IMG/VR virus record: IMGVR_UViG_3300018494_000461
DNA: 20,608 nt
Strand: one strand, 5' to 3'
From: a virus
Shown here in pieces: positions 7,650-15,122 of this stretch. The notes beneath the pieces were generated by a model. The model searched no databases. It was not told where the DNA came from and saw only the letters and a program-made list of their open reading frames with translations. Position 1 is the first letter of the stretch. Each line of letters begins with the position of its first letter. A program made the translations under genes and the position numbers.

Positions 7650-7856
7650 TTACCTCCCATACATCGGCCACAGGTCAGAATATTTTCTTACACCATCGCC
7701 AATTTTAATCCAAAAATAATCCTCTGCGTGTATTCTAAAGCACCAAACTTCTCCTGGGTCTGGTACATCTTGGGAGTGGCTACATAGCCACTCCCCATAT
7801 TCTTCCATGCTCTGGAAATCAAACAGTTTCGGCCTCAGTATCCTCGTCCAGTCCAT
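7650..7856 (-). CDS. Hypothetical protein, 68 aa
   Basis: ATG at 7856 has RBS GGAGGAAGCAG but overlaps the last 38 nt of the RNA ligase gene. Its stop lies in the SD of the next gene. Confidence 0.35.
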   Translation of the reverse strand: MDWTRILRPKLFDFQSMEEYGEWLCSHSQDVPDPGEVWCFRIHAEDYFWIKIGDGVRKYSDLWPMYGR

Positions 7857-9237
7857 CTGCTTCCTCCATATCAGGAGCCTCGGCGTTCTCCTTGATGATG
7901 CCTTCCAGCACCTTGAACTGGAAGTTCTTGTGCTTATAGGCGGTGAAAGTAGGACGATTGATTACACGAACTACGACGCCCTCACGGATGTGAGTAGGGT
8001 CAATAGGCTCTTCACCATCGTAGAACTGTTCTGCCTTATTCAAGACCCATTCACCGGCAGAGATAGTGTCATCTTCCTTGGAACCAGGATTCTCGGGAAT
8101 GAAGCCATACCAGTGCAGAGGAACGGTCTTAACACCCATGTACATACAACGATGACGCATCTGGTCAGGAGTGTACTCTACAACCTCGCCATCCTCGTTA
8201 GTCATGGTCATACGATATACATAGATATCGTTCTTGTGGTAGAAGGGGATGCGGTTTACAACATCACCTTGCTCATTGAACTCAAGTTCGTACTGAACAC
8301 CAGGAGCGCAGCCGTAAGAGAAAGTAGTAGTCTCGCCATACTTCTTTACGAACTCCTTATCGTTCAGCTTCTTGTTGTTACATACGCCCATAATAGGCTG
8401 ACCCTCGTGAGTGAAGCCAACAATCTCGTAGTAGACAGTCTCGCCCTTCAGCAACTTGCCCTCAAAGAAATCGTGATAAGGCTTACGGAACTCATTAGAG
8501 CCGTAGAAACCACCATCAAAAGTATCCAGAACAGTGCGGCGAGTACCAGATACATAACCCCAATCGTAGATAGGAGTGCCCTCACGACGCAGGATAATAT
8601 CCAGTAAAGTACGCTTAAAGCCCTTCAAAACCTTGGTATGAGAAGTACGAGCGGAAGTTCCGTGGAGCTTACGAGTAATCTCAATCAAGTCACCAGGCTT
8701 AAACACATGTAGGTTGTAAGCCAACTGCTCAGTATCAATGTGCTCATAGAACACAGGTGCGATAGAGCGCTTTGCCTTACGCTTTGCGCGCTTACCAGCA
8801 CCGCCGGCCGCAGTTGCCTGATGCTTGCTGCGAGGAATGTACTTACGGCAGATTTCATGTCCATTCACAGTAGTGATGGAGTCGCCGATATTCAAGGAGT
8901 CCATATCTACGCCAGTGTAGGCGAGACAAGACAAAGGTAGGAACAGACCATCAGACTGCTCACCACGCAGCTTAATTGCCTTTACATTTCTCTTAGCGGG
9001 GTCCATATAGCCGCCGGAAACATTCTTTCCGTTCTCATATACAGCCAAAAGACCGTTCTTCTGACAAAACTCCATAGACAGCTGCAGGTCTACGGGGAAA
9101 TATACACCAATCTCGCCCTCGGTGTACTTATCCTTTGCGACGCAGACAGTATTTACAAAGCAGGTTGCCAGAACCAGCTTATCTGCGTTAGGATGGGGAC
9201 GTACATCCTTCAAAGTAGTTACATATCCACAATGCAT
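7819..9237 (-). CDS. ATP-dependent RNA ligase with an N-terminal tRNA-binding (OB-fold, Myf/EMAP-like) domain, 472 aa
   Basis: N-terminal HPNADKL..V motif of the tRNA-binding domain. Ligase nucleotidyltransferase motifs: I KLHGTS (compare T4 Rnl2 KIHGTN), III YYEIVGF, IV EGVVVRV, V KHKNFQFK. RBS GAAAGGAG. Confidence 0.8.
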   Translation of the reverse strand: MHCGYVTTLKDVRPHPNADKLVLATCFVNTVCVAKDKYTEGEIGVYFPVDLQLSMEFCQKNGLLAVYENGKNVSGGYMDPAKRNVKAIKLRGEQSDGLFLPLSCLAYTGVDMDSLNIGDSITTVNGHEICRKYIPRSKHQATAAGGAGKRAKRKAKRSIAPVFYEHIDTEQLAYNLHVFKPGDLIEITRKLHGTSARTSHTKVLKGFKRTLLDIILRREGTPIYDWGYVSGTRRTVLDTFDGGFYGSNEFRKPYHDFFEGKLLKGETVYYEIVGFTHEGQPIMGVCNNKKLNDKEFVKKYGETTTFSYGCAPGVQYELEFNEQGDVVNRIPFYHKNDIYVYRMTMTNEDGEVVEYTPDQMRHRCMYMGVKTVPLHWYGFIPENPGSKEDDTISAGEWVLNKAEQFYDGEEPIDPTHIREGVVVRVINRPTFTAYKHKNFQFKVLEGIIKENAEAPDMEEADGLDEDTEAETV

Positions 9238-9575: not shown

Positions 9576-9853
9576 TCGTGTCTCTCCTTATATGTCTGTT
9601 CACGCAGGCAAAGGAAAATTGTATTTCCATGTTCCTGCCAATAATCTTCAACATTACAAACTCCCTTACAGTAATAAGGGGAAGAAGGAATAATATTCCC
9701 TCCATCATCGGGGTTAAGCTGCGGCCCAGCCAACTCAAGAACTTCCAGGTTGGAATCTCGCTCTTTATCTATATCATAGAAAAAGATAGGTAATTCTGGC
9801 GGGAAAACCGCCAACTGCTTCATCAGCTCTCCGACCGTCATAGTCTTAGTCAT
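9572..9853 (-). CDS. Hypothetical protein, 93 aa (paralog B of a tandem pair)
   Basis: ATG at 9853 follows AAGGAGGAAGCTA and lies just after the exonuclease stop. The longer track ORF starting at 9961 would overlap the exonuclease gene. Confidence 0.5.
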   Translation of the reverse strand: MTKTMTVGELMKQLAVFPPELPIFFYDIDKERDSNLEVLELAGPQLNPDDGGNIIPSSPYYCKGVCNVEDYWQEHGNTIFLCLREQTYKERHE

Positions 9854-10754
9854 TAGCTTCCTCCTTAGCGGCGGCCGCAATTGCTCCCTCGGGAGAATAC
9901 TCCCAATAGCAATTATAACGGCACTTTCCAGTCTGAGGAGCGGCCTTGACCGCAGCCTCAATCTTTCTTACAGAGTCAGCGTTCTTAGGACTGACATTGC
10001 GGGCGATGTACTTGATAACCCACAAAGCAGCGGTGTTGAAATCGTTGAAATACTTTGCCTGACCGCTATGTTGGTCGACGCACTTGAGCATCCAATGATT
10101 TTCATCAGCGCCAGTTTCTGCTTCCCACTTAGGCTGAGAATTCCACTTCTGGAAAACCGCAGGAGCCTTTTTGCCGATATGGGGACGAGGCTGAGAAGGC
10201 ATAGCCAGAATAGTTTCCTTATCTTCGGGCTTACACTTATCATACAAGTGAGCCACAACGGTTTCAAGCATACGAGCGTCTTCCAGAGCATCATGCTTCT
10301 GAACCAGTTCTTTCTGCTCCTGGATAAGCATATACACCTTACGAAGAGCCAGGTCGTTCTTTGCGACGAAGAACTTCTTCACCACAGATGCGTAGTCAAT
10401 TAGATTGCCTGCGATAGCCTGGGCGCAGACACAAGCCTGCGTATCGCTCATATGACGGAGTGTGGAATTGATAAATTCGGCATCCGAATTGCCGTAGACA
10501 TAATAGGCAGGAGCTTCACCGTCGCTATTGGCTTCAATGAAATCATACAGCATCTTGAACGCAGCATCTGCGTCCGGAGCTTCAGCCAGCATTTCATTGG
10601 TAATACCGGTCAGTTCGGTGATGAACTTATCGACCTTCTTTTTGTCGCCAGGCTTGACATATGTTTCAAATGTCTCACCCGTTCCAGCGACGCAGCCGAT
10701 ACTGATAATTCGATTTGAAAATCTCGTTGCCTCAAAGTCTAAGTAAAAATTCAT
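9846..10754 (-). CDS. DEDDh-family 3'-5' exonuclease (DnaQ-like fold) with a ~130-aa C-terminal extension of unknown function, 302 aa
   Basis: Exo I YLDFEAT, Exo II YGNSDAEFI, Exo III HDALEDARM. First gene after promoter copy 4. Confidence 0.8.
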   Translation of the reverse strand: MNFYLDFEATRFSNRIISIGCVAGTGETFETYVKPGDKKKVDKFITELTGITNEMLAEAPDADAAFKMLYDFIEANSDGEAPAYYVYGNSDAEFINSTLRHMSDTQACVCAQAIAGNLIDYASVVKKFFVAKNDLALRKVYMLIQEQKELVQKHDALEDARMLETVVAHLYDKCKPEDKETILAMPSQPRPHIGKKAPAVFQKWNSQPKWEAETGADENHWMLKCVDQHSGQAKYFNDFNTAALWVIKYIARNVSPKNADSVRKIEAAVKAAPQTGKCRYNCYWEYSPEGAIAAAAKEEAND

Positions 10755-10792: not shown

Positions 10793-10821
10793 ATTATATC
10801 ATATTTTTTAATAAAAATCAA
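10793..10821 (-). promoter_or_regulatory. Sigma-70 type promoter, cassette copy 4: -35 TTGATT (10816-10821), 17-nt spacer, TGaTATAAT (10793-10801)
   Basis: Same cassette. Confidence 0.8.
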
Positions 10822-10844
10822 AAGAGGGAGTTTAATCTCCCTCT
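10822..10844 (-). terminator. Intrinsic terminator: 8-bp stem AGAGGGAG/CTCCCTCT with loop TTTAAT, U-tract into the -35
   Basis: Hairpin at 10823-10844. The stop codon of the upstream 77-aa gene sits in its loop. Confidence 0.7.
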
Positions 10845-11065
10845 TCAATTTCTATCTCTGGATAAGCTGCAAGGTCAATATCAGCCAGTTCTTCAAGGTC
10901 TTCGATATCTCGTCCGATATCCTGGCTACATTGTTCCAGGAAGTCGTGACAAGACTCTCCATACCAGGTCCAGTTATCAACTCCACCTTGCTCTAATGCG
11001 CAACACTTATTTGCAGCATAGATTAGTTCTCTTAGCTCATCTTCTTTGATAATACGATATTTCAT
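10832..11065 (-). CDS. Hypothetical acidic protein, 77 aa, co-transcribed with the sigma factor
   Basis: Its start is 1 nt after the sigma factor stop. Cys-containing, Glu/Asp-rich C-terminus. Confidence 0.5.
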   Translation of the reverse strand: MKYRIIKEDELRELIYAANKCCALEQGGVDNWTWYGESCHDFLEQCSQDIGRDIEDLEELADIDLAAYPEIEIEEGD

Positions 11066-11066
11066 T

Positions 11067-11969
11067 TTATGCCATGGCCTCCTTTAGCATCTTCGCACGA
11101 ACAGGATTTCTGAGCTTACGGATAGCCTTATTTTCAATCTGGCGAATACGCTCCTTGGACAGGCCATAGTGCTGACCAACTTCCTCAAGAGTCATAGCCT
11201 TTTCGGCATCAATACCGAAACGCATCTTGAGAATTTCAGCTTCACGAGCGCCCAGAGTGTCAAATACCGCAGCGATAATCTGACTGTTCGCTTCACGGAT
11301 AATATTTGCCATAGGATTCTCTGCACTGTGGTCCGCAATTAGGTCGCCCATACAGGTTTCACCCTCATCATCAACGGGGGTGTCGAGAGAGGTAGTAGCC
11401 TGTGCCAGGTCCATAACAGTCTGGACCTTGTCCAGTTCAACGCCCATATGAGCCGCAATTTCCTTATCAGAGGGAGCTCTGCCGAGCTTCTGAGTGAGTT
11501 CCGCAGTTGCCTTCTTCACCTTAGACAGGAGTTCAACCATATTAGCAGGAATACGAATGGTACGAGATTGGTCGCCCAGTGCGCGAGAAATGGCCTGGCG
11601 AATCCAGTAAGTTGCGTAGGTAGAGAATCGGAAGCCCTTGGAGCCATCGTACTTTTCAGCCGCCTTAATCAGACCGAGATTGCCCTCCTGGATGAGGTCA
11701 AGCAGCGGCAAGCCGCAACCATAATACTTCTTCGCAACAGATACAACCAGAAGCAGATTGCACTCAACCAGAGTGTTTACCGCATCTCTGTCGCCTGCGA
11801 GAGCCTTAACAGAAAGTTCCTTCTCCTGGTCAAAAGACAGGCGAGGATGATTGCCAATAGACTTTAGATAAGCCTTAACACCATCCAGAACAACATTGGT
11901 ATCATAATCATAGGTCTCGTTCATTTCACGAGCATCTTCTTCCATAATCATAACTTCATTCTGTTCCAT
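11067..11969 (-). CDS. RNA polymerase sigma factor, sigma-70 family (regions 1.2 to 4.2), about 300 aa
   Basis: Region 2 [18 protein letters not shown] and [18 protein letters not shown]. Region 4.2 helix-turn-helix [27 protein letters not shown]. Likely start is the ATG at 11969 after GGAGAG. The track's longer ORF begins at a TTG. Confidence 0.9.
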
Positions 11970-12015
11970 TATGCACTCTCCTATCAAACTTTATCTTTTT
12001 TCATTTTCTATATAT

Positions 12016-12044
12016 ATTATAACATATTTTTTTATAAAAATCAA
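12016..12044 (-). promoter_or_regulatory. Sigma-70 type promoter, cassette copy 5: -35 TTGATT (12039-12044), 17-nt spacer, TGtTATAAT (12016-12024)
   Basis: Same cassette. Drives the sigma factor operon. Confidence 0.8.
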
Positions 12045-12074
12045 ATAAGCCCTTTCTGTTGAGAAAGGGCTTAT
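12045..12074 (-). terminator. Intrinsic terminator: 13-bp stem ATAAGCCCTTTCT/AGAAAGGGCTTAT with loop GTTG, directly abutting the -35
   Basis: On the minus strand the hairpin is followed by TTGATTTTT. Confidence 0.8.
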
Positions 12075-12078
12075 CTTT

Positions 12079-12449: not shown

Positions 12450-13256
12450 TTACATTCCTTCCTCTATATAAATTACTTTATCAACATATTTGCGGTCCTC
12501 ACCTTTGAGAATCGGCATATCGTAGTCAATACCGGTTTCACGAGTCCAGGCAGTGCCACGCTTCCAACGAGTTGGAAAATCGTTCCAGTTGATACCTTTT
12601 TGCTCGTGGAGCATATCTTGGATTACGCTACAAGAGCAACCCTGGAGCTTACTGTGAGAGAAGAATGCCTGACCAACCATCTGAATGGAGTTGCGGGTTG
12701 CGTCAAGCTGGCGCCAGTAAATCAGATTACAGGCTTCCTCTTTGGGAATGTTGAACACGCGAGAGTCGAACATAGCACCAATAGATGCTTTCTCGCAGTA
12801 AAGACTATATAGCTTATCCTGCTGCTCCCACCATTCGGGGTCAGTGTGACGAGGGTCGCTCCACTGACGGCTACGCCAAGTACCAACTTCCTCGGCAAAA
12901 TATTTGTTGAACGCCATGGTTGCCATAGAAGCAGAGATAGAACACATCTTCTGTACTTCATAATCGAACCAGGCACTGGTATCGAGAGTCTGGTAGTCAA
13001 TCAACAGGAGAGTGATTTCGTCAGACTGGGTGTAACCGAAGACACAACCCTGGATATTTCTACACAGATGTTCCATGGTTTTTACCATCGCATTTCCCAG
13101 CACTTTATCGAAAGGCTTTTGGAAGCCACGAGTGAAAGTGTGGAAGGCTTTACCGTCGAGGCGAATTGCGACGGGCATTCGTCTCACCAAACGGGTTTTC
13201 GGCACCTGCTCGTAGAAAGTTTTCATACGAGTGCCAAGAGCATCATTCACTGGCAT
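12450..13256 (-). CDS. Thg1-like protein (tRNA-His guanylyltransferase family 3'-5' nucleotidyltransferase), about 268 aa
   Basis: Thg1 hallmarks VAIRLDGKAFHTFT (RxDGxxFxxF) and GYTQSDEITLL (SDE). The best start is the ATG at 13256 after GGAAGGAGAAGAGAAAAA. The track ORF extends to 13340. Confidence 0.85.
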   Translation of the reverse strand: MPVNDALGTRMKTFYEQVPKTRLVRRMPVAIRLDGKAFHTFTRGFQKPFDKVLGNAMVKTMEHLCRNIQGCVFGYTQSDEITLLLIDYQTLDTSAWFDYEVQKMCSISASMATMAFNKYFAEEVGTWRSRQWSDPRHTDPEWWEQQDKLYSLYCEKASIGAMFDSRVFNIPKEEACNLIYWRQLDATRNSIQMVGQAFFSHSKLQGCSCSVIQDMLHEQKGINWNDFPTRWKRGTAWTRETGIDYDMPILKGEDRKYVDKVIYIEEGM

Positions 13257-13473
13257 TTTTTCTCTTCTCCTTCCAAGCTGCACAGTAGTGTGTAGGTTTT
13301 TCATATTTGCGGCTTCTCTTACAATAGCATTTTCCTTCAATGCCGCGTGTTGAAAACGGACCTCTGCCGTCGCCGCAAGTATCGCAGCATTTTACTTCTT
13401 GACTTTTGGAAAATACATCCCTAAACAGGGCTTTTGTTAATTCGCCAGATTGCCATTTTTCAATGGTAGCCAT
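13243..13473 (-). CDS. Small Cys-rich (zinc-binding) protein, 76 aa
   Basis: CCDTCGDG...CYC...C. The start is uncertain; the ATG at 13473 is the first after the upstream gene's stop. The track ORF to 13587 would overlap the phosphoesterase gene by 100 nt. Confidence 0.4.
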   Translation of the reverse strand: MATIEKWQSGELTKALFRDVFSKSQEVKCCDTCGDGRGPFSTRGIEGKCYCKRSRKYEKPTHYCAAWKEKRKNASE

Positions 13474-13486
13474 GGCGACTTCTTCA

Positions 13487-14227
13487 TCAACGACGAACTT
13501 CGCCAATTTTCTTACCTCCACGCTTAGCCTTACGCTTGGTAGCGTTATCAATGGTTTCACGATGGATAGTCTGAATTTTGGAAGCAAAACCAGACTTGAG
13601 GAATTGAGTGAAGTTCACAGGCTCCCAACCAATGACATCAGAGCAGACGTTCAGGTGGTTAGCTCTCTTATGACCGGCATGGTCATGACCATGGATGTTA
13701 AACAACCAAGGAATTTCCACAGGCTCATGAGTCAGAATCAACTTCTCACCAACGATGAGGGCACCCTCATACACCTCATCGAACAGCAGGTTGTCTGCAG
13801 TTGCGACCCAACGCTTAAAAGGAGCGTGAAACTCCCAAGACTCATTGATGGTAATTTTCCAATTATGGAAATACATTCTCATTTCAGCGAGAACTTCTTC
13901 CTTGGTGAACTTATCCTGGTCATAAACACGAGTAATGACCTTGCGCTTGTAGTTAGAAGCGCCGGCATCATGGTTACCCATAATCAGAACCTTATATTCA
14001 GCACGAAGCTGACGCACATACTCGATGTCACCAACGTCGCCCAGAATAACCAGACAGTCGCGGCGGCCGCACTTTGCGTTGATTCTCTTAACCTGCTCTT
14101 CGGCGGAAGGACGACCCTTAATGCCGCCGGCAAGTTCATCATCATTGAAGTGAGGGTCGGAATAAATCCAGACAGTCTGGTGCTTTTCGCCCCAGTGCTG
14201 GAAAGAATCATAGATACCAGCTAACAT
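13487..14227 (-). CDS. Calcineurin-like binuclear metallophosphoesterase, 246 aa
   Basis: DPHF, LGDVGD, GNHD and HGHDH motifs. RBS AAAGGAGG is 8 nt upstream. Confidence 0.8.
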   Translation of the reverse strand: MLAGIYDSFQHWGEKHQTVWIYSDPHFNDDELAGGIKGRPSAEEQVKRINAKCGRRDCLVILGDVGDIEYVRQLRAEYKVLIMGNHDAGASNYKRKVITRVYDQDKFTKEEVLAEMRMYFHNWKITINESWEFHAPFKRWVATADNLLFDEVYEGALIVGEKLILTHEPVEIPWLFNIHGHDHAGHKRANHLNVCSDVIGWEPVNFTQFLKSGFASKIQTIHRETIDNATKRKAKRGGKKIGEVRR

Positions 14228-14601: not shown

Positions 14602-14630
14602 ATTATAACATATTTTTTATAAAAAATCAA
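14602..14630 (-). promoter_or_regulatory. Sigma-70 type promoter, cassette copy 6: -35 TTGATT (14625-14630), 17-nt spacer, TGtTATAAT (14602-14610)
   Basis: Same cassette. Confidence 0.8.
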
Positions 14631-14661
14631 TAAAGACCCTATGGTTGCCATAGGGTCTTTA
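14631..14661 (-). terminator. Intrinsic terminator: about 14-bp stem TAAAGACCCTATGG/CCATAGGGTCTTTA with loop TTG
   Basis: Directly abuts the -35 of copy 6 and follows the stop of the 85-aa membrane protein gene (14663). Confidence 0.8.
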
Positions 14662-14662
14662 C

Positions 14663-14920
14663 TTAAAATTCAATCTTACTGTCTTTAGACTTGCCTTTAA
14701 AAGCATTTTCGGCTTTTTCAATTAAATAGCCAATATAGTTAGGTTCTCTGTTCTCACGATATTCAACTGCCCAAGAGTAGGTCTTAGGTAAGAATACAAC
14801 AACAAGAACAACCCAAACGACAGGCCAGCCAATTAATGCCAGAAGAGCAAGAAGAAGTGTAATCGCTAAGGCACCTGCGGCCGCAGTTCCCACGGCAATT
14901 AGATAATCTTTAATCCTCAT
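14663..14920 (-). CDS. Small membrane protein with two predicted TM helices and a charged C-tail, 85 aa
   Basis: MRIKDYLIAVGTAAAGALAITLLLALLALIGWPVVWVVLVVVFLPK... RBS AAGGAGTATGTTT before the ATG at 14920. Confidence 0.55.
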   Translation of the reverse strand: MRIKDYLIAVGTAAAGALAITLLLALLALIGWPVVWVVLVVVFLPKTYSWAVEYRENREPNYIGYLIEKAENAFKGKSKDSKIEF

Positions 14921-15122
14921 AAACATACTCCTTATAACTTTTTGCGTAATCGGGAGCACAAATTTTTACCTCGAAATGGTCGTCGTCTATATCGCTGGAA
15001 TAGAATATTTCATGTAATGCCATTTGAATGTCATTTACATAATCTTCTAATTCATCTTCTGGAATGTCCTTAATTCTCATTACAAAATGAAATGGAATAA
15101 CAAAATCAGCATTTTTTGCCAT
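14910..15122 (-). CDS. Hypothetical acidic protein, 70 aa
   Basis: ATG at 15122 follows GGAGACTGATT and lies 13 nt after the phosphatase stop. The track ORF starting at 15281 would overlap the phosphatase gene. Confidence 0.45.
   Translation of the reverse strand: MAKNADFVIPFHFVMRIKDIPEDELEDYVNDIQMALHEIFYSSDIDDDHFEVKICAPDYAKSYKEYVYED

Follow-up and report, generated by a model that had tools for sequence, protein, structure and literature searches.

Why should a phage copy a housekeeping sigma factor rather than invent a promoter code of its own, and is the small acidic protein encoded directly behind that factor its partner? These questions are raised by a two-gene unit on the minus strand of a 20,608-nt viral stretch (the window, meaning the whole stretch of DNA that was analysed). 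An earlier note had proposed that the sigma factor either serves a later promoter class or regulates itself positively, and that its 77-aa neighbour is an anti-sigma factor or a modulator of RNA polymerase. Both proteins belong to known kinds.

The sigma-70 family gene occupies positions 11969 to 11067 (minus strand, 300 aa, ATG at 11969, stop codon at 11069 to 11067), behind a Shine-Dalgarno sequence, AGGAGAG (11976 to 11982, minus strand), the AGGAG of which, as read from the sequence, lies 8 nt before the ATG. These positions and the minus-strand orientation of both ORFs coincide exactly with the earlier description, and the protein strings quoted there, TIRIPANM included, are found in the product. 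Each of the four Pfam sigma regions exceeds its gathering cut-off (bits/cut-off: Sigma70_r1_2, 31.5/22; r2, 75.7/24; r3, 90.2/25.3; r4, 64.1/24.1), and the protein belongs to phrog_351. Among solved structures the best matches are SigA of Staphylococcus aureus (8x6f), Clostridioides difficile (7l7b) and Bacillus subtilis (7ckq), with E-values of 1e-77 to 1e-80; identity is 49–50% to these Firmicutes proteins and 45% to the C-terminal part of Escherichia coli sigma-70.

The alignment to SigA begins at about SigA residue 95, with only 26 residues, acidic in composition, ahead of region 1.2; region 1.1, a trait of primary (group 1) RpoD/SigA factors, is absent. The term 'full-length' used for this protein is thus right for regions 1.2 to 4.2 and wrong for region 1.1. 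The protein falls below every NCBIfam RpoD/SigA equivalog cut-off (329.9 versus 572 for NF006666; 299.9 versus 354 for TIGR02393, RpoD_Cterm), and its matches to the models for RpoS and for cyanobacterial group 2 factors likewise stay below cut-off. Regions 1.2 to 4.2 close to group 1 and a missing region 1.1 make up a group 2-type architecture, the resemblance being one of architecture only.

The alignment of recognition residues in regions 2.4 and 4.2, which had been suggested as a check, was carried out with E. coli numbering and took in region 3.0 as well. Residues Q437, R441, R451, E458, E585, R586, R588 and Q589 are kept, four positions carry conservative changes (W433Y, T440S, H455N and R584K), and every other contact tested for the −10, extended −10 and −35 elements is kept. 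The sigma factor is therefore intact and not a degenerate protein that has lost its DNA-recognition residues. The changes W433Y, T440S and H455N distinguish the recognition regions from those of SigA across the whole closer clade. Among relatives, the residues at W433Y, H455N and R584K/R differ while the cassette promoter described below shows no matching change; because the residues vary in this way, no covariation binds the phage sigma factor to the cassette. Covariation of R584K with the unusual −35 sequence TTGATT was considered and ruled out, since two relatives (L002 and L180) have R584 and yet the same cassette. A better account of the T-rich −35 is that it is formed by the U-tract of the terminator upstream.

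That terminator, which ends the preceding Thg1-like unit, is a hairpin with a 15-pair stem at 12043 to 12076 (minus strand; dG −20.8 kcal/mol, z −6.3), after which comes UUUGAUUUUUAU; its U-tract continues into the −35 of the promoter that serves the sigma gene. The promoter itself (12016 to 12044, minus strand) is an exact match to the cassette, with 0 expected: TTGATT, a 17-nt spacer and TATAAT with an extended −10 TG, that is, a near-consensus promoter of SigA type (TTGATT-17-TGnTATAAT). Seven cassette copies with at most three mismatches (0 expected) and an eighth at 7139 occur in the window, all on the minus strand, which bears out the claim that the sigma gene is expressed from the same cassette as the neighbouring units. 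At the other end of the unit, an intrinsic terminator (10821 to 10846, minus strand; dG −16.6 kcal/mol, z −4.6) overlaps the stop codon of the 77-aa ORF and supplies, with its U-tract, the −35 of the next cassette promoter (10793 to 10821, minus strand), which drives a DnaQ/RNase T-like exonuclease unit. With a cassette upstream, no terminator-like site reported between the two ORFs and a hairpin at the end, the anatomy fits co-transcription of the sigma gene and the 77-aa ORF.

The association of cassette and sigma gene is conserved well beyond the window. The cassette lies ahead of the sigma gene in every relative examined, at sigma identities from 100% down to 47%, and in many of the IMG/VR contigs examined (120–196 kb) whose sigma factor is 45–55% identical; the most distant relatives carry a diverged form of it, matched at up to six mismatches. 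From cassette to sigma start the distance is 65–107 nt in most relatives, and more where another ORF intervenes. The cassette is present in more than 104 IMG/VR stretches and in 59 stretches of metagenome-assembled genomes (GTDB), mostly in Clostridia and Bacilli bins from the guts of ruminants and other animals. Other bins with the cassette carry the labels Methanobrevibacter, Treponema, Alistipes and Alphaproteobacteria, and these occurrences look like mis-binned phage contigs; we therefore go no further than to say that the host is probably a Firmicute. Viral contigs in IMG/VR (132 and 177 kb) and metagenome contigs of some 200 kb carry sigma homologues, and the source is a phage of the animal or human gut, uncultured and about 200 kb in size. 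No cultured relative was found in the phage collection, the best matches reaching at most 51% identity for the sigma factor and at most 31% for a topoisomerase. Candidate counter-defence modules (NAD salvage with SIR2, RNA repair) are also plentiful in the window.

In the course of events that we propose, host SigA-RNA polymerase would first transcribe the sigma unit from the near-consensus promoter fused to the preceding terminator. The phage sigma factor would then most likely place host core polymerase on promoters of the same kind, the phage cassettes, its own included, creating a positive feedback that would sustain early and middle phage transcription or shield it from whatever befalls host SigA. 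The 77-aa gene would be a passenger that has entered a variable slot after the sigma stop codon and ahead of the terminator. Its product would most likely work alone on an enzyme of host DNA processing or defence; it might, for instance, be an acidic protein that inhibits a nuclease of the RecBCD/AddAB type. We give about even chances to this joint reading, in which a SigA-like sigma factor reinforces cassette transcription and a passenger acts by itself, perhaps on a nuclease. Of the two roles offered earlier for the sigma factor, positive autoregulation is the one towards which the data lean, given SigA-like recognition residues and a cassette close to the SigA consensus; service to a later class of its own is retained as a rival. 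Judged from sequence, reinforcement of cassette transcription is favoured over service to a very different late class, since the cassette fits the specificity expected of the sigma factor and precedes its gene even where sigma identity is 45–59%. Host SigA alone could suffice to read the cassette.

The rival just mentioned, which we regard as possible but rather unlikely, holds that host SigA reads all the cassettes and that the phage factor sends core polymerase to middle or late promoters outside the window, as SPO1 gp28 does. The gene content of the cassette-anchored loci speaks for it: these loci, of which about 1.2 Mb were surveyed, carry replication, nucleotide, RNA-repair and NAD genes but showed no structural gene, so that late genes probably lack the cassette and may use another promoter class, possibly served by the phage sigma factor. 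The clade-wide differences from SigA at positions 433, 440 and 455 point the same way, as does the setting of the sigma gene, which is early-type and driven by a host-type promoter, just as gp28 is. Phage factors that define new promoter classes (SPO1 gp28, T4 gp55, ECF-like sigmas) are nevertheless highly diverged in regions 2.4 and 4.2, whereas Q437, R441, E458, E585, R586, R588 and Q589 are kept here. PMC13401047 describes SPO1 switching. A crude k-mer search, run on 481 clusters of non-cassette intergenic sequence from outside the structural regions, also tells against a late class, as it returned AT-rich noise only and no second conserved motif. Occurrences of the T4 late-promoter sequence, TATAAATA, in the non-cassette intergenic clusters had no positional or contextual consistency. 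As for a second, gp55-like sigma factor, phrog_351 was the only sigma family among the 25 most-matched of 131 matched PHROG families (150 representative proteins, partial genome coverage). A further reading, which strikes us as improbable, makes the phage protein an orthogonal replacement of SigA that reads the same −35/−10 code at hundreds of cassettes while escaping a phage-imposed or physiological shut-down of SigA, and makes the 77-aa family a distinct anti-defence fold, mislabelled gp5.9, with its own target in Firmicutes. The escape would follow from the missing region 1.1 and from the differences on the region 4 surface (Q578, K584, N592 and N600), and such a phage could silence host transcription with its promoter language unchanged.

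Whichever of these holds for the sigma factor, the ORF behind it is a real gene. It runs from 11065 to 10832 (minus strand), its ATG lying one base past the sigma stop codon (TAA-A-ATG), and its ribosome-binding site, AAGGAGG (11078 to 11084, minus strand), lies inside the 3' end of the sigma gene, 12 nt before the ATG. Its product is, as described earlier, strongly acidic (pI 4.05, net charge −16, 22 Asp+Glu against 6 Lys+Arg). A dN/dS of 0.02–0.20 indicates strong purifying selection, which disposes of the possibility that the ORF is not translated. The four cysteines, to which the earlier note had drawn attention, are not conserved in the family and carry no weight.

That this protein is an anti-sigma factor or an RNA polymerase-binding modulator, acting with or against the adjacent sigma factor, now appears very improbable. 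The idea draws on the tight juxtaposition of the two genes in one transcription unit, on a pairing kept in lineages with 85–100% sigma identity, and on the small size and acidity that the protein shares with some RNA polymerase inhibitors such as T7 Gp2. Conservation with the sigma gene, as would be expected of an anti-sigma factor, is nevertheless not seen: the gene is absent behind the sigma gene in L001, L002 and L180 (88, 76 and 59% sigma identity), other, unrelated small ORFs fill the slot in L188 and L149, and in the distant relatives (45–55%) the next cassette begins 811–980 nt after the sigma start, which in most of them leaves no room for it. In L137, a homologue adjoins phosphoribosyltransferase (PRTase) and isochorismatase genes instead of a sigma gene, and family members abound in groups of phages (T7-like, Pakpunavirus, T4-like) from which no sigma factor is known. 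The predicted structure of the protein has no match, among known structures, to anti-sigma domains, AsiA, Gp2 or gp67. The 77-aa gene is a swappable passenger, not a sigma partner.

The passenger belongs to PF25708 (Phage_T7_Gp5_9; 34.0 bits against a gathering cut-off of 24.5, residues 6–40) and to phrog_6234 (E 1.8e-8). This family comprises at least 1,000 clusters (1,026 representative clusters) with the motif ALExGGVDNWxWY, carried here as ALEQGGVDNWTWY, in which L24, G28, V29 and W32 are invariant; it has members in Pakpunavirus, T4-like Acj133 and T7-like KpV763. The structure is predicted with a pLDDT of 92.7 as three helices, the motif forming the first turn. The protein may plausibly be a nuclease inhibitor or a DNA mimic, but support for this is weak: we infer the function from the family label, the charge and the genomic company only, and it counts against the RecBCD label that Firmicutes use AddAB, not RecBCD. 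T7 gp5.9 is a DNA mimic that inhibits RecBCD (PMC9836394), and both Pfam and PHROGs place the family with RecBCD inhibitors; moreover, the member in the Klebsiella T7-like phage KpV763 sits in the gp5.9 slot, between a gp5.5-like gene and the exonuclease gene, which suggests functional replacement of gp5.9. These two points weigh against another explanation, to which we accord a limited, minority likelihood, namely that the protein is a counter-defence or host-takeover factor with a target other than RecBCD/AddAB, for example an SMC-type complex or some other defence protein that binds DNA, and that the gp5.9 label has been over-extended. In its favour, T7 gp5.9 itself is marginal on PF25708 (only 27.8 bits), is placed in phrog_9014 and not in phrog_6234, and is missed by the family profile (hhalign probability 0.3%; no PDB sequence match to gp5.9 at E ≤ 10). 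The fold, as predicted, appears to differ from that of gp5.9, and T7 gp5.9 itself acts on more than RecBCD, with MukBEF as its second target (PMC7617805). A literature search for the GGVDNW motif and for PF25708 returned nothing, and the papers searched contain no functional test of GGVDNW-type members.

In a large, abundant and uncultured family of gut phages, this sigma gene belongs to the conserved core; it is always placed behind the SigA-type promoter that it shares with the other early genes, and its unit offers a clean and testable case of a phage that copies the housekeeping sigma factor. The 77-aa gene is a caution, as operon adjacency had suggested a sigma partner and the relatives show a slot for swappable passengers; the label 'gp5.9 RecBCD inhibitor' given to this common family rests on thin evidence.

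Both proteins can be set against known counterparts. T7 gp5.9 and the 77-aa protein are small, very acidic early phage proteins with a pI of about 4.05 in both, the 77-aa protein is above the PF25708 cut-off, and family members occupy the gp5.9 slot of T7-like Klebsiella phages. In contrast, T7 gp5.9 lacks the GGVDNWxWY motif and folds as a beta-strand and one long helix in a parallel coiled-coil dimer, whereas three helices are predicted for the 77-aa protein.

Compared with SigA of Firmicutes, the phage sigma factor is about 50% identical over regions 1.2 to 4.2 and has essentially the same contacts for the −10, extended −10 (E458) and −35 elements; it differs in having a 26-aa acidic N-terminus in place of region 1.1 and in the substitutions W433Y, T440S, H455N, R584K, A592N and H600N. 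With SPO1 gp28 and T4 gp55 it shares an early-type region (replication, nucleotide, RNA-repair and NAD genes), a host SigA-consensus promoter and an expected binding to host core polymerase, but those highly diverged factors read non-SigA promoters and the present one keeps SigA-type recognition residues. Closer counterparts are the RpoD-like, 'more complete' sigma factors of jumbo phages (Iyer et al. 2021, PMC7824862), for which we found no tested mechanism. Such factors, for example the rpoD product of Microcystis phage MaAM05, and the group 2 sigmas of cyanophages have regions 2–4 near those of cellular RpoD, as here, and the likeness extends to a large genome, no phage RNA polymerase seen in the part sampled and a presumed recruitment of host core polymerase. 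The present clade differs from them in being uncultured and gut-associated, the best cultured-phage match being only 47–51% identical, and in the stereotyped terminator-promoter cassette unit in which its sigma gene is conserved across the family.

The sigma gene lies on the minus strand, which carries all long ORFs of the window. It runs from an ATG at 11969 to a stop codon at 11069..11067, encodes 300 aa and has an AGGAG 8 nt upstream. The 77-aa ORF follows on the same strand (ATG 11065 to 10832), one base after the sigma stop (TAA-A-ATG), with a GGAGG 12 nt upstream, within the end of the sigma gene. The unit is preceded by a cassette promoter at 12044..12016 (minus strand; TTGATT, 17 nt, TATAAT, with a TG extended -10) and followed by a hairpin at 10846..10821 (minus strand) overlapping the small ORF at its stop codon. 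The hairpins flanking the unit have energies of -20.8 (upstream) and -16.6 kcal/mol (z -6.3 and -4.6 compared with shuffles), and UUUUGAUUUUUAU or a close variant directly follows each of them, so that the U-tract of each terminator also serves the following promoter as its -35 element. The coordinates given in the earlier note fit the two ORFs exactly, and its account of the anatomy, with the sigma gene under the same cassette as the other units, is correct.

The 29-nt cassette was present in seven copies at no more than three mismatches (none expected), and a further, less exact copy at 7139 brings the number to eight; all are on the minus strand. The terminator-promoter cassettes occupy window positions 1067-1124, 4493-4547, 7111-7139, 10793-10846, 12016-12076, 14602-14663, 16009-16067 and 19477-19543. 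The terminator U-tract (UUUUGAUUUUU) doubles as the -35 TTGATT, and this second role accounts for a constant TTGATT in place of TTGACA. Conservation of the cassette spans -35 to about +12 (220 distinct instances, 286 in total, from related phages).

All four Pfam sigma regions (1.2, 2, 3 and 4) exceed their gathering scores in the 300-aa protein, and its closest solved structures are the primary sigmas of S. aureus, C. difficile and B. subtilis (E 1e-77 to 1e-80). It aligns with SigA from about SigA residue 95 onward, indicating that region 1.1 is missing; in its place are 26 residues, of which nine are acidic and one basic. The NCBIfam RpoD, SigA and RpoS models all match below their equivalog cut-offs (e.g. 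330 vs 572 bits), which argues for a diverged primary-like sigma of group 2 architecture and not a SigA orthologue. In an alignment with sigma-70 of E. coli and two SigA proteins of Firmicutes (45-50% identity), it keeps Q437, R441, R451, E458, E585, R586, R588 and Q589 (E. coli numbering), residues known from sigma-70 to recognise the -10, the extended -10 and the -35, and carries the substitutions W433Y, T440S, H455N, R584K, A592N and H600N. Because these promoter-reading residues are retained, the sigma is intact, and the possibility of a degenerate protein, raised in the earlier note, is dismissed. Covariation of R584K with the unusual -35 was considered and rejected, as the sigmas of the related loci L002 and L180 have Arg there with the same cassette. 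The sigma shared by two other related loci, L003 and L004 (L003 2173-3069), looks recombinant from its sequence: about 90 N-terminal residues are of the L002 type (ENEVLIMEEEAQEALNEEY...) and the remainder is of the window type.

Each relative examined has the cassette ahead of its sigma gene (sigma identities 100, 96, 94, 88, 86, 76, 72, 59 and 47%), usually 65-107 nt upstream and further away where the sigma is preceded by an additional ORF. A wider search retrieved sigma genes of 45-55% identity from IMG/VR contigs (120-196 kb, 27-39% G+C). Cassette-like promoters (TTGATT, a T-run/A-run spacer and TGnTATAAT, with up to six mismatches allowed) are present on the sigma strand in many of the contigs examined, upstream of the sigma gene, downstream of it or both, and a few of the checked loci have none. 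This co-occurrence marks the sigma as a long-standing core gene across a broad family of phages, apparently expressed from the cassette promoter type in those relatives where a promoter can be identified.

The near-consensus SigA promoter that the cassette provides, together with the SigA-like recognition residues of the protein, points to what is the simplest reading, and one we consider about evenly balanced between right and wrong: host SigA would initiate transcription of the sigma unit, the phage sigma would then take over the same promoters, its own included, and early and middle phage transcription would be reinforced, or insulated from host SigA. Of the two options in the earlier note, autoregulation is thus plausible, and a distinct later promoter class served by the phage sigma stays alive as its main rival. 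It does so because structural genes were never seen beside cassettes; a crude search for motifs, run on 481 non-cassette intergenic clusters from outside the structural regions, found nothing.

The 77-aa ORF is a real gene; its dN/dS was 0.02-0.20 at dS 0.30-0.59 against five relatives. Were it a sigma-specific partner, it should co-occur with the sigma, and this was not seen. It lies behind the sigma in lineages of 85-100% sigma identity. In L001 (88%), L002 (76%) and L180 (59%) a terminator directly follows the sigma stop, while the slot holds a 119-aa lipoprotein-like ORF in L188 (72%) and a 38-aa hydrophobic ORF in L149 (47%). Among relatives of 45-55% sigma identity, the following cassette usually begins 811-980 nt past the sigma start, leaving no space for a second gene, and in L137 a distant family member adjoins phosphoribosyltransferase and isochorismatase genes instead of a sigma. 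L001 lacks the ORF (6906-6960, compared with window 11069-10821), yet TAAAATGA, the same bases as the small ORF's start in the window, persists after its sigma stop; this remnant suggests that the ORF was deleted in the L001 lineage and not inserted in that of the window.

An exhaustive profile search (E<=0.001) placed the 77-aa protein in a family of 1,026 representative clusters, mostly of 65-100 aa, with the pattern M-K-Y-Y-x-I-x-E-x-x-L-x-x-L-L ... A-L-E-x-G-G-V-D-N-W-x-W-Y-G-x-S. L24, G28, V29 and W32 were invariant among sampled members, and the four cysteines of the 77-aa protein were not conserved in that sample. Members occur in Pseudomonas Pakpunavirus phages, in the T4-like Acinetobacter phage 133 and in the T7-like Klebsiella phage KpV763, there between a gp5.5-like gene and the exonuclease gene, the position of gp5.9. 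None of the records and regions examined from these phages showed a sigma-partner context, and to our knowledge the Pakpunavirus, T4-like and T7-like groups encode no sigma-70-type partner for such a protein. With a variable slot and a large, independent family, the anti-sigma or RNA polymerase modulator role proposed in the earlier note is judged wrong; the ORF is very probably an independent counter-defence or host-takeover passenger and not a sigma partner.

Candidate counter-defence genes elsewhere in the window, for NAD salvage with SIR2 and for tRNA/RNA repair, fit a passenger. Four minus-strand genes form a single cassette-driven unit (1525-4467), encoding isochorismatase/nicotinamidase-like (3877-4467), phosphoribosyltransferase-domain (2839-3666), YqeY-like (2302-2820) and SIR2-family (1525-2298) proteins, a set suggestive of a module for NAD salvage or for NAD-related counter-defence. 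An RNA-repair-looking set (7819-9237, 9846-10754, 12450-13340, 13487-14227 and 15106-15996, minus strand) comprises an RNA ligase with a PHA02142 OB-fold, a DnaQ/RNase T-like exonuclease, a Thg1-like tRNA-His guanylyltransferase and two calcineurin-like phosphoesterases, and may defend against host nucleases that target tRNA or RNA. A separate cassette unit (4560-7076, minus strand) encodes an 838-aa protein that matches the shoulder domain of the major vault protein (E 2e-23) and a vault repeat (E 1.4e-8), with homologues in a 10-member cluster from related loci; a vault-like protein is unusual in a phage.

Many metagenome contigs, several of them 190-207 kb long, encode an identical or nearly identical sigma, and further homologues lie on viral contigs from IMG/VR (132 and 177 kb). 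Genes in the window and cassette-anchored loci are of replication, nucleotide, RNA-repair and NAD types (e.g. Thg1-like, RNA ligase, phosphoesterases, DnaB, RecJ, topoisomerase II, PhoH, SIR2, nicotinamidase, phosphoribosyltransferase), and none seen there was structural; the window looks like part of the early or middle region of a phage genome of some 200 kb. The phage collection held no close cultured relative (best matches at most 51% for the sigma and 31% for a topoisomerase). The exact cassette was present in more than 104 IMG/VR stretches and in 59 GTDB MAG stretches, mostly in Clostridia/Bacilli bins from ruminant and other animal guts, and the host is probably a Firmicute. Cassette-bearing GTDB contigs of up to 176 kb (L127-L185) were also binned as Methanobrevibacter, Treponema, Alistipes, Alphaproteobacteria and Nanosyncoccus; these few implausible bins indicate that such contigs are probably phage DNA mis-binned into MAGs.

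Both genes belong to known kinds, phage-encoded RpoD-like sigmas having been described as a class in jumbo phages (PMC7824862). The interest of the unit is modest and rests on two points: with the sigma one can ask, in a clean natural setting, why a phage would carry a duplicate of the housekeeping sigma, and the 77-aa protein represents a small-protein family that is very common but has no secure functional label. That protein has a pI of 4.05 and a net charge of -16 (13 acidic and one basic among the C-terminal 32 residues), and matches Pfam PF25708 'Phage_T7_Gp5_9' (34 bits, cut-off 24.5) and phrog_6234 'host RecBCD nuclease inhibitor' (E 1.8e-8). Some PF25708 members have 200-250 aa and two copies of the motif region. 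The single most likely function of the 77-aa protein, still a tentative choice, is that of an acidic inhibitor of a RecBCD/AddAB-type nuclease.

The 'gp5.9' label itself is weak for proteins of the GGVDNW type. T7 gp5.9 barely passes the PF25708 cut-off (27.8 bits, compared with 26-59 bits for GGVDNW-type proteins) and falls in a different PHROG; it was not detected by hhalign against the family profile (probability 0.3%), nor found when that profile was searched against the PDB sequence set. No mention of the GGVDNW motif or of the PF25708 family was found in the papers searched. The AlphaFold2 model of the 77-aa protein, a confident one (pLDDT 92.7, 65-sequence alignment), has three helices (residues 8-27, 32-50 and 57-65), with GGVDNW predicted to form the turn between the first two, whereas in the solved structure of gp5.9 a strand leads into a single long helix, forming a parallel coiled-coil dimer (PMC9836394). 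The label is favoured by the curators' grouping, by positional replacement in T7-like phages and by the matching charge of the two proteins.
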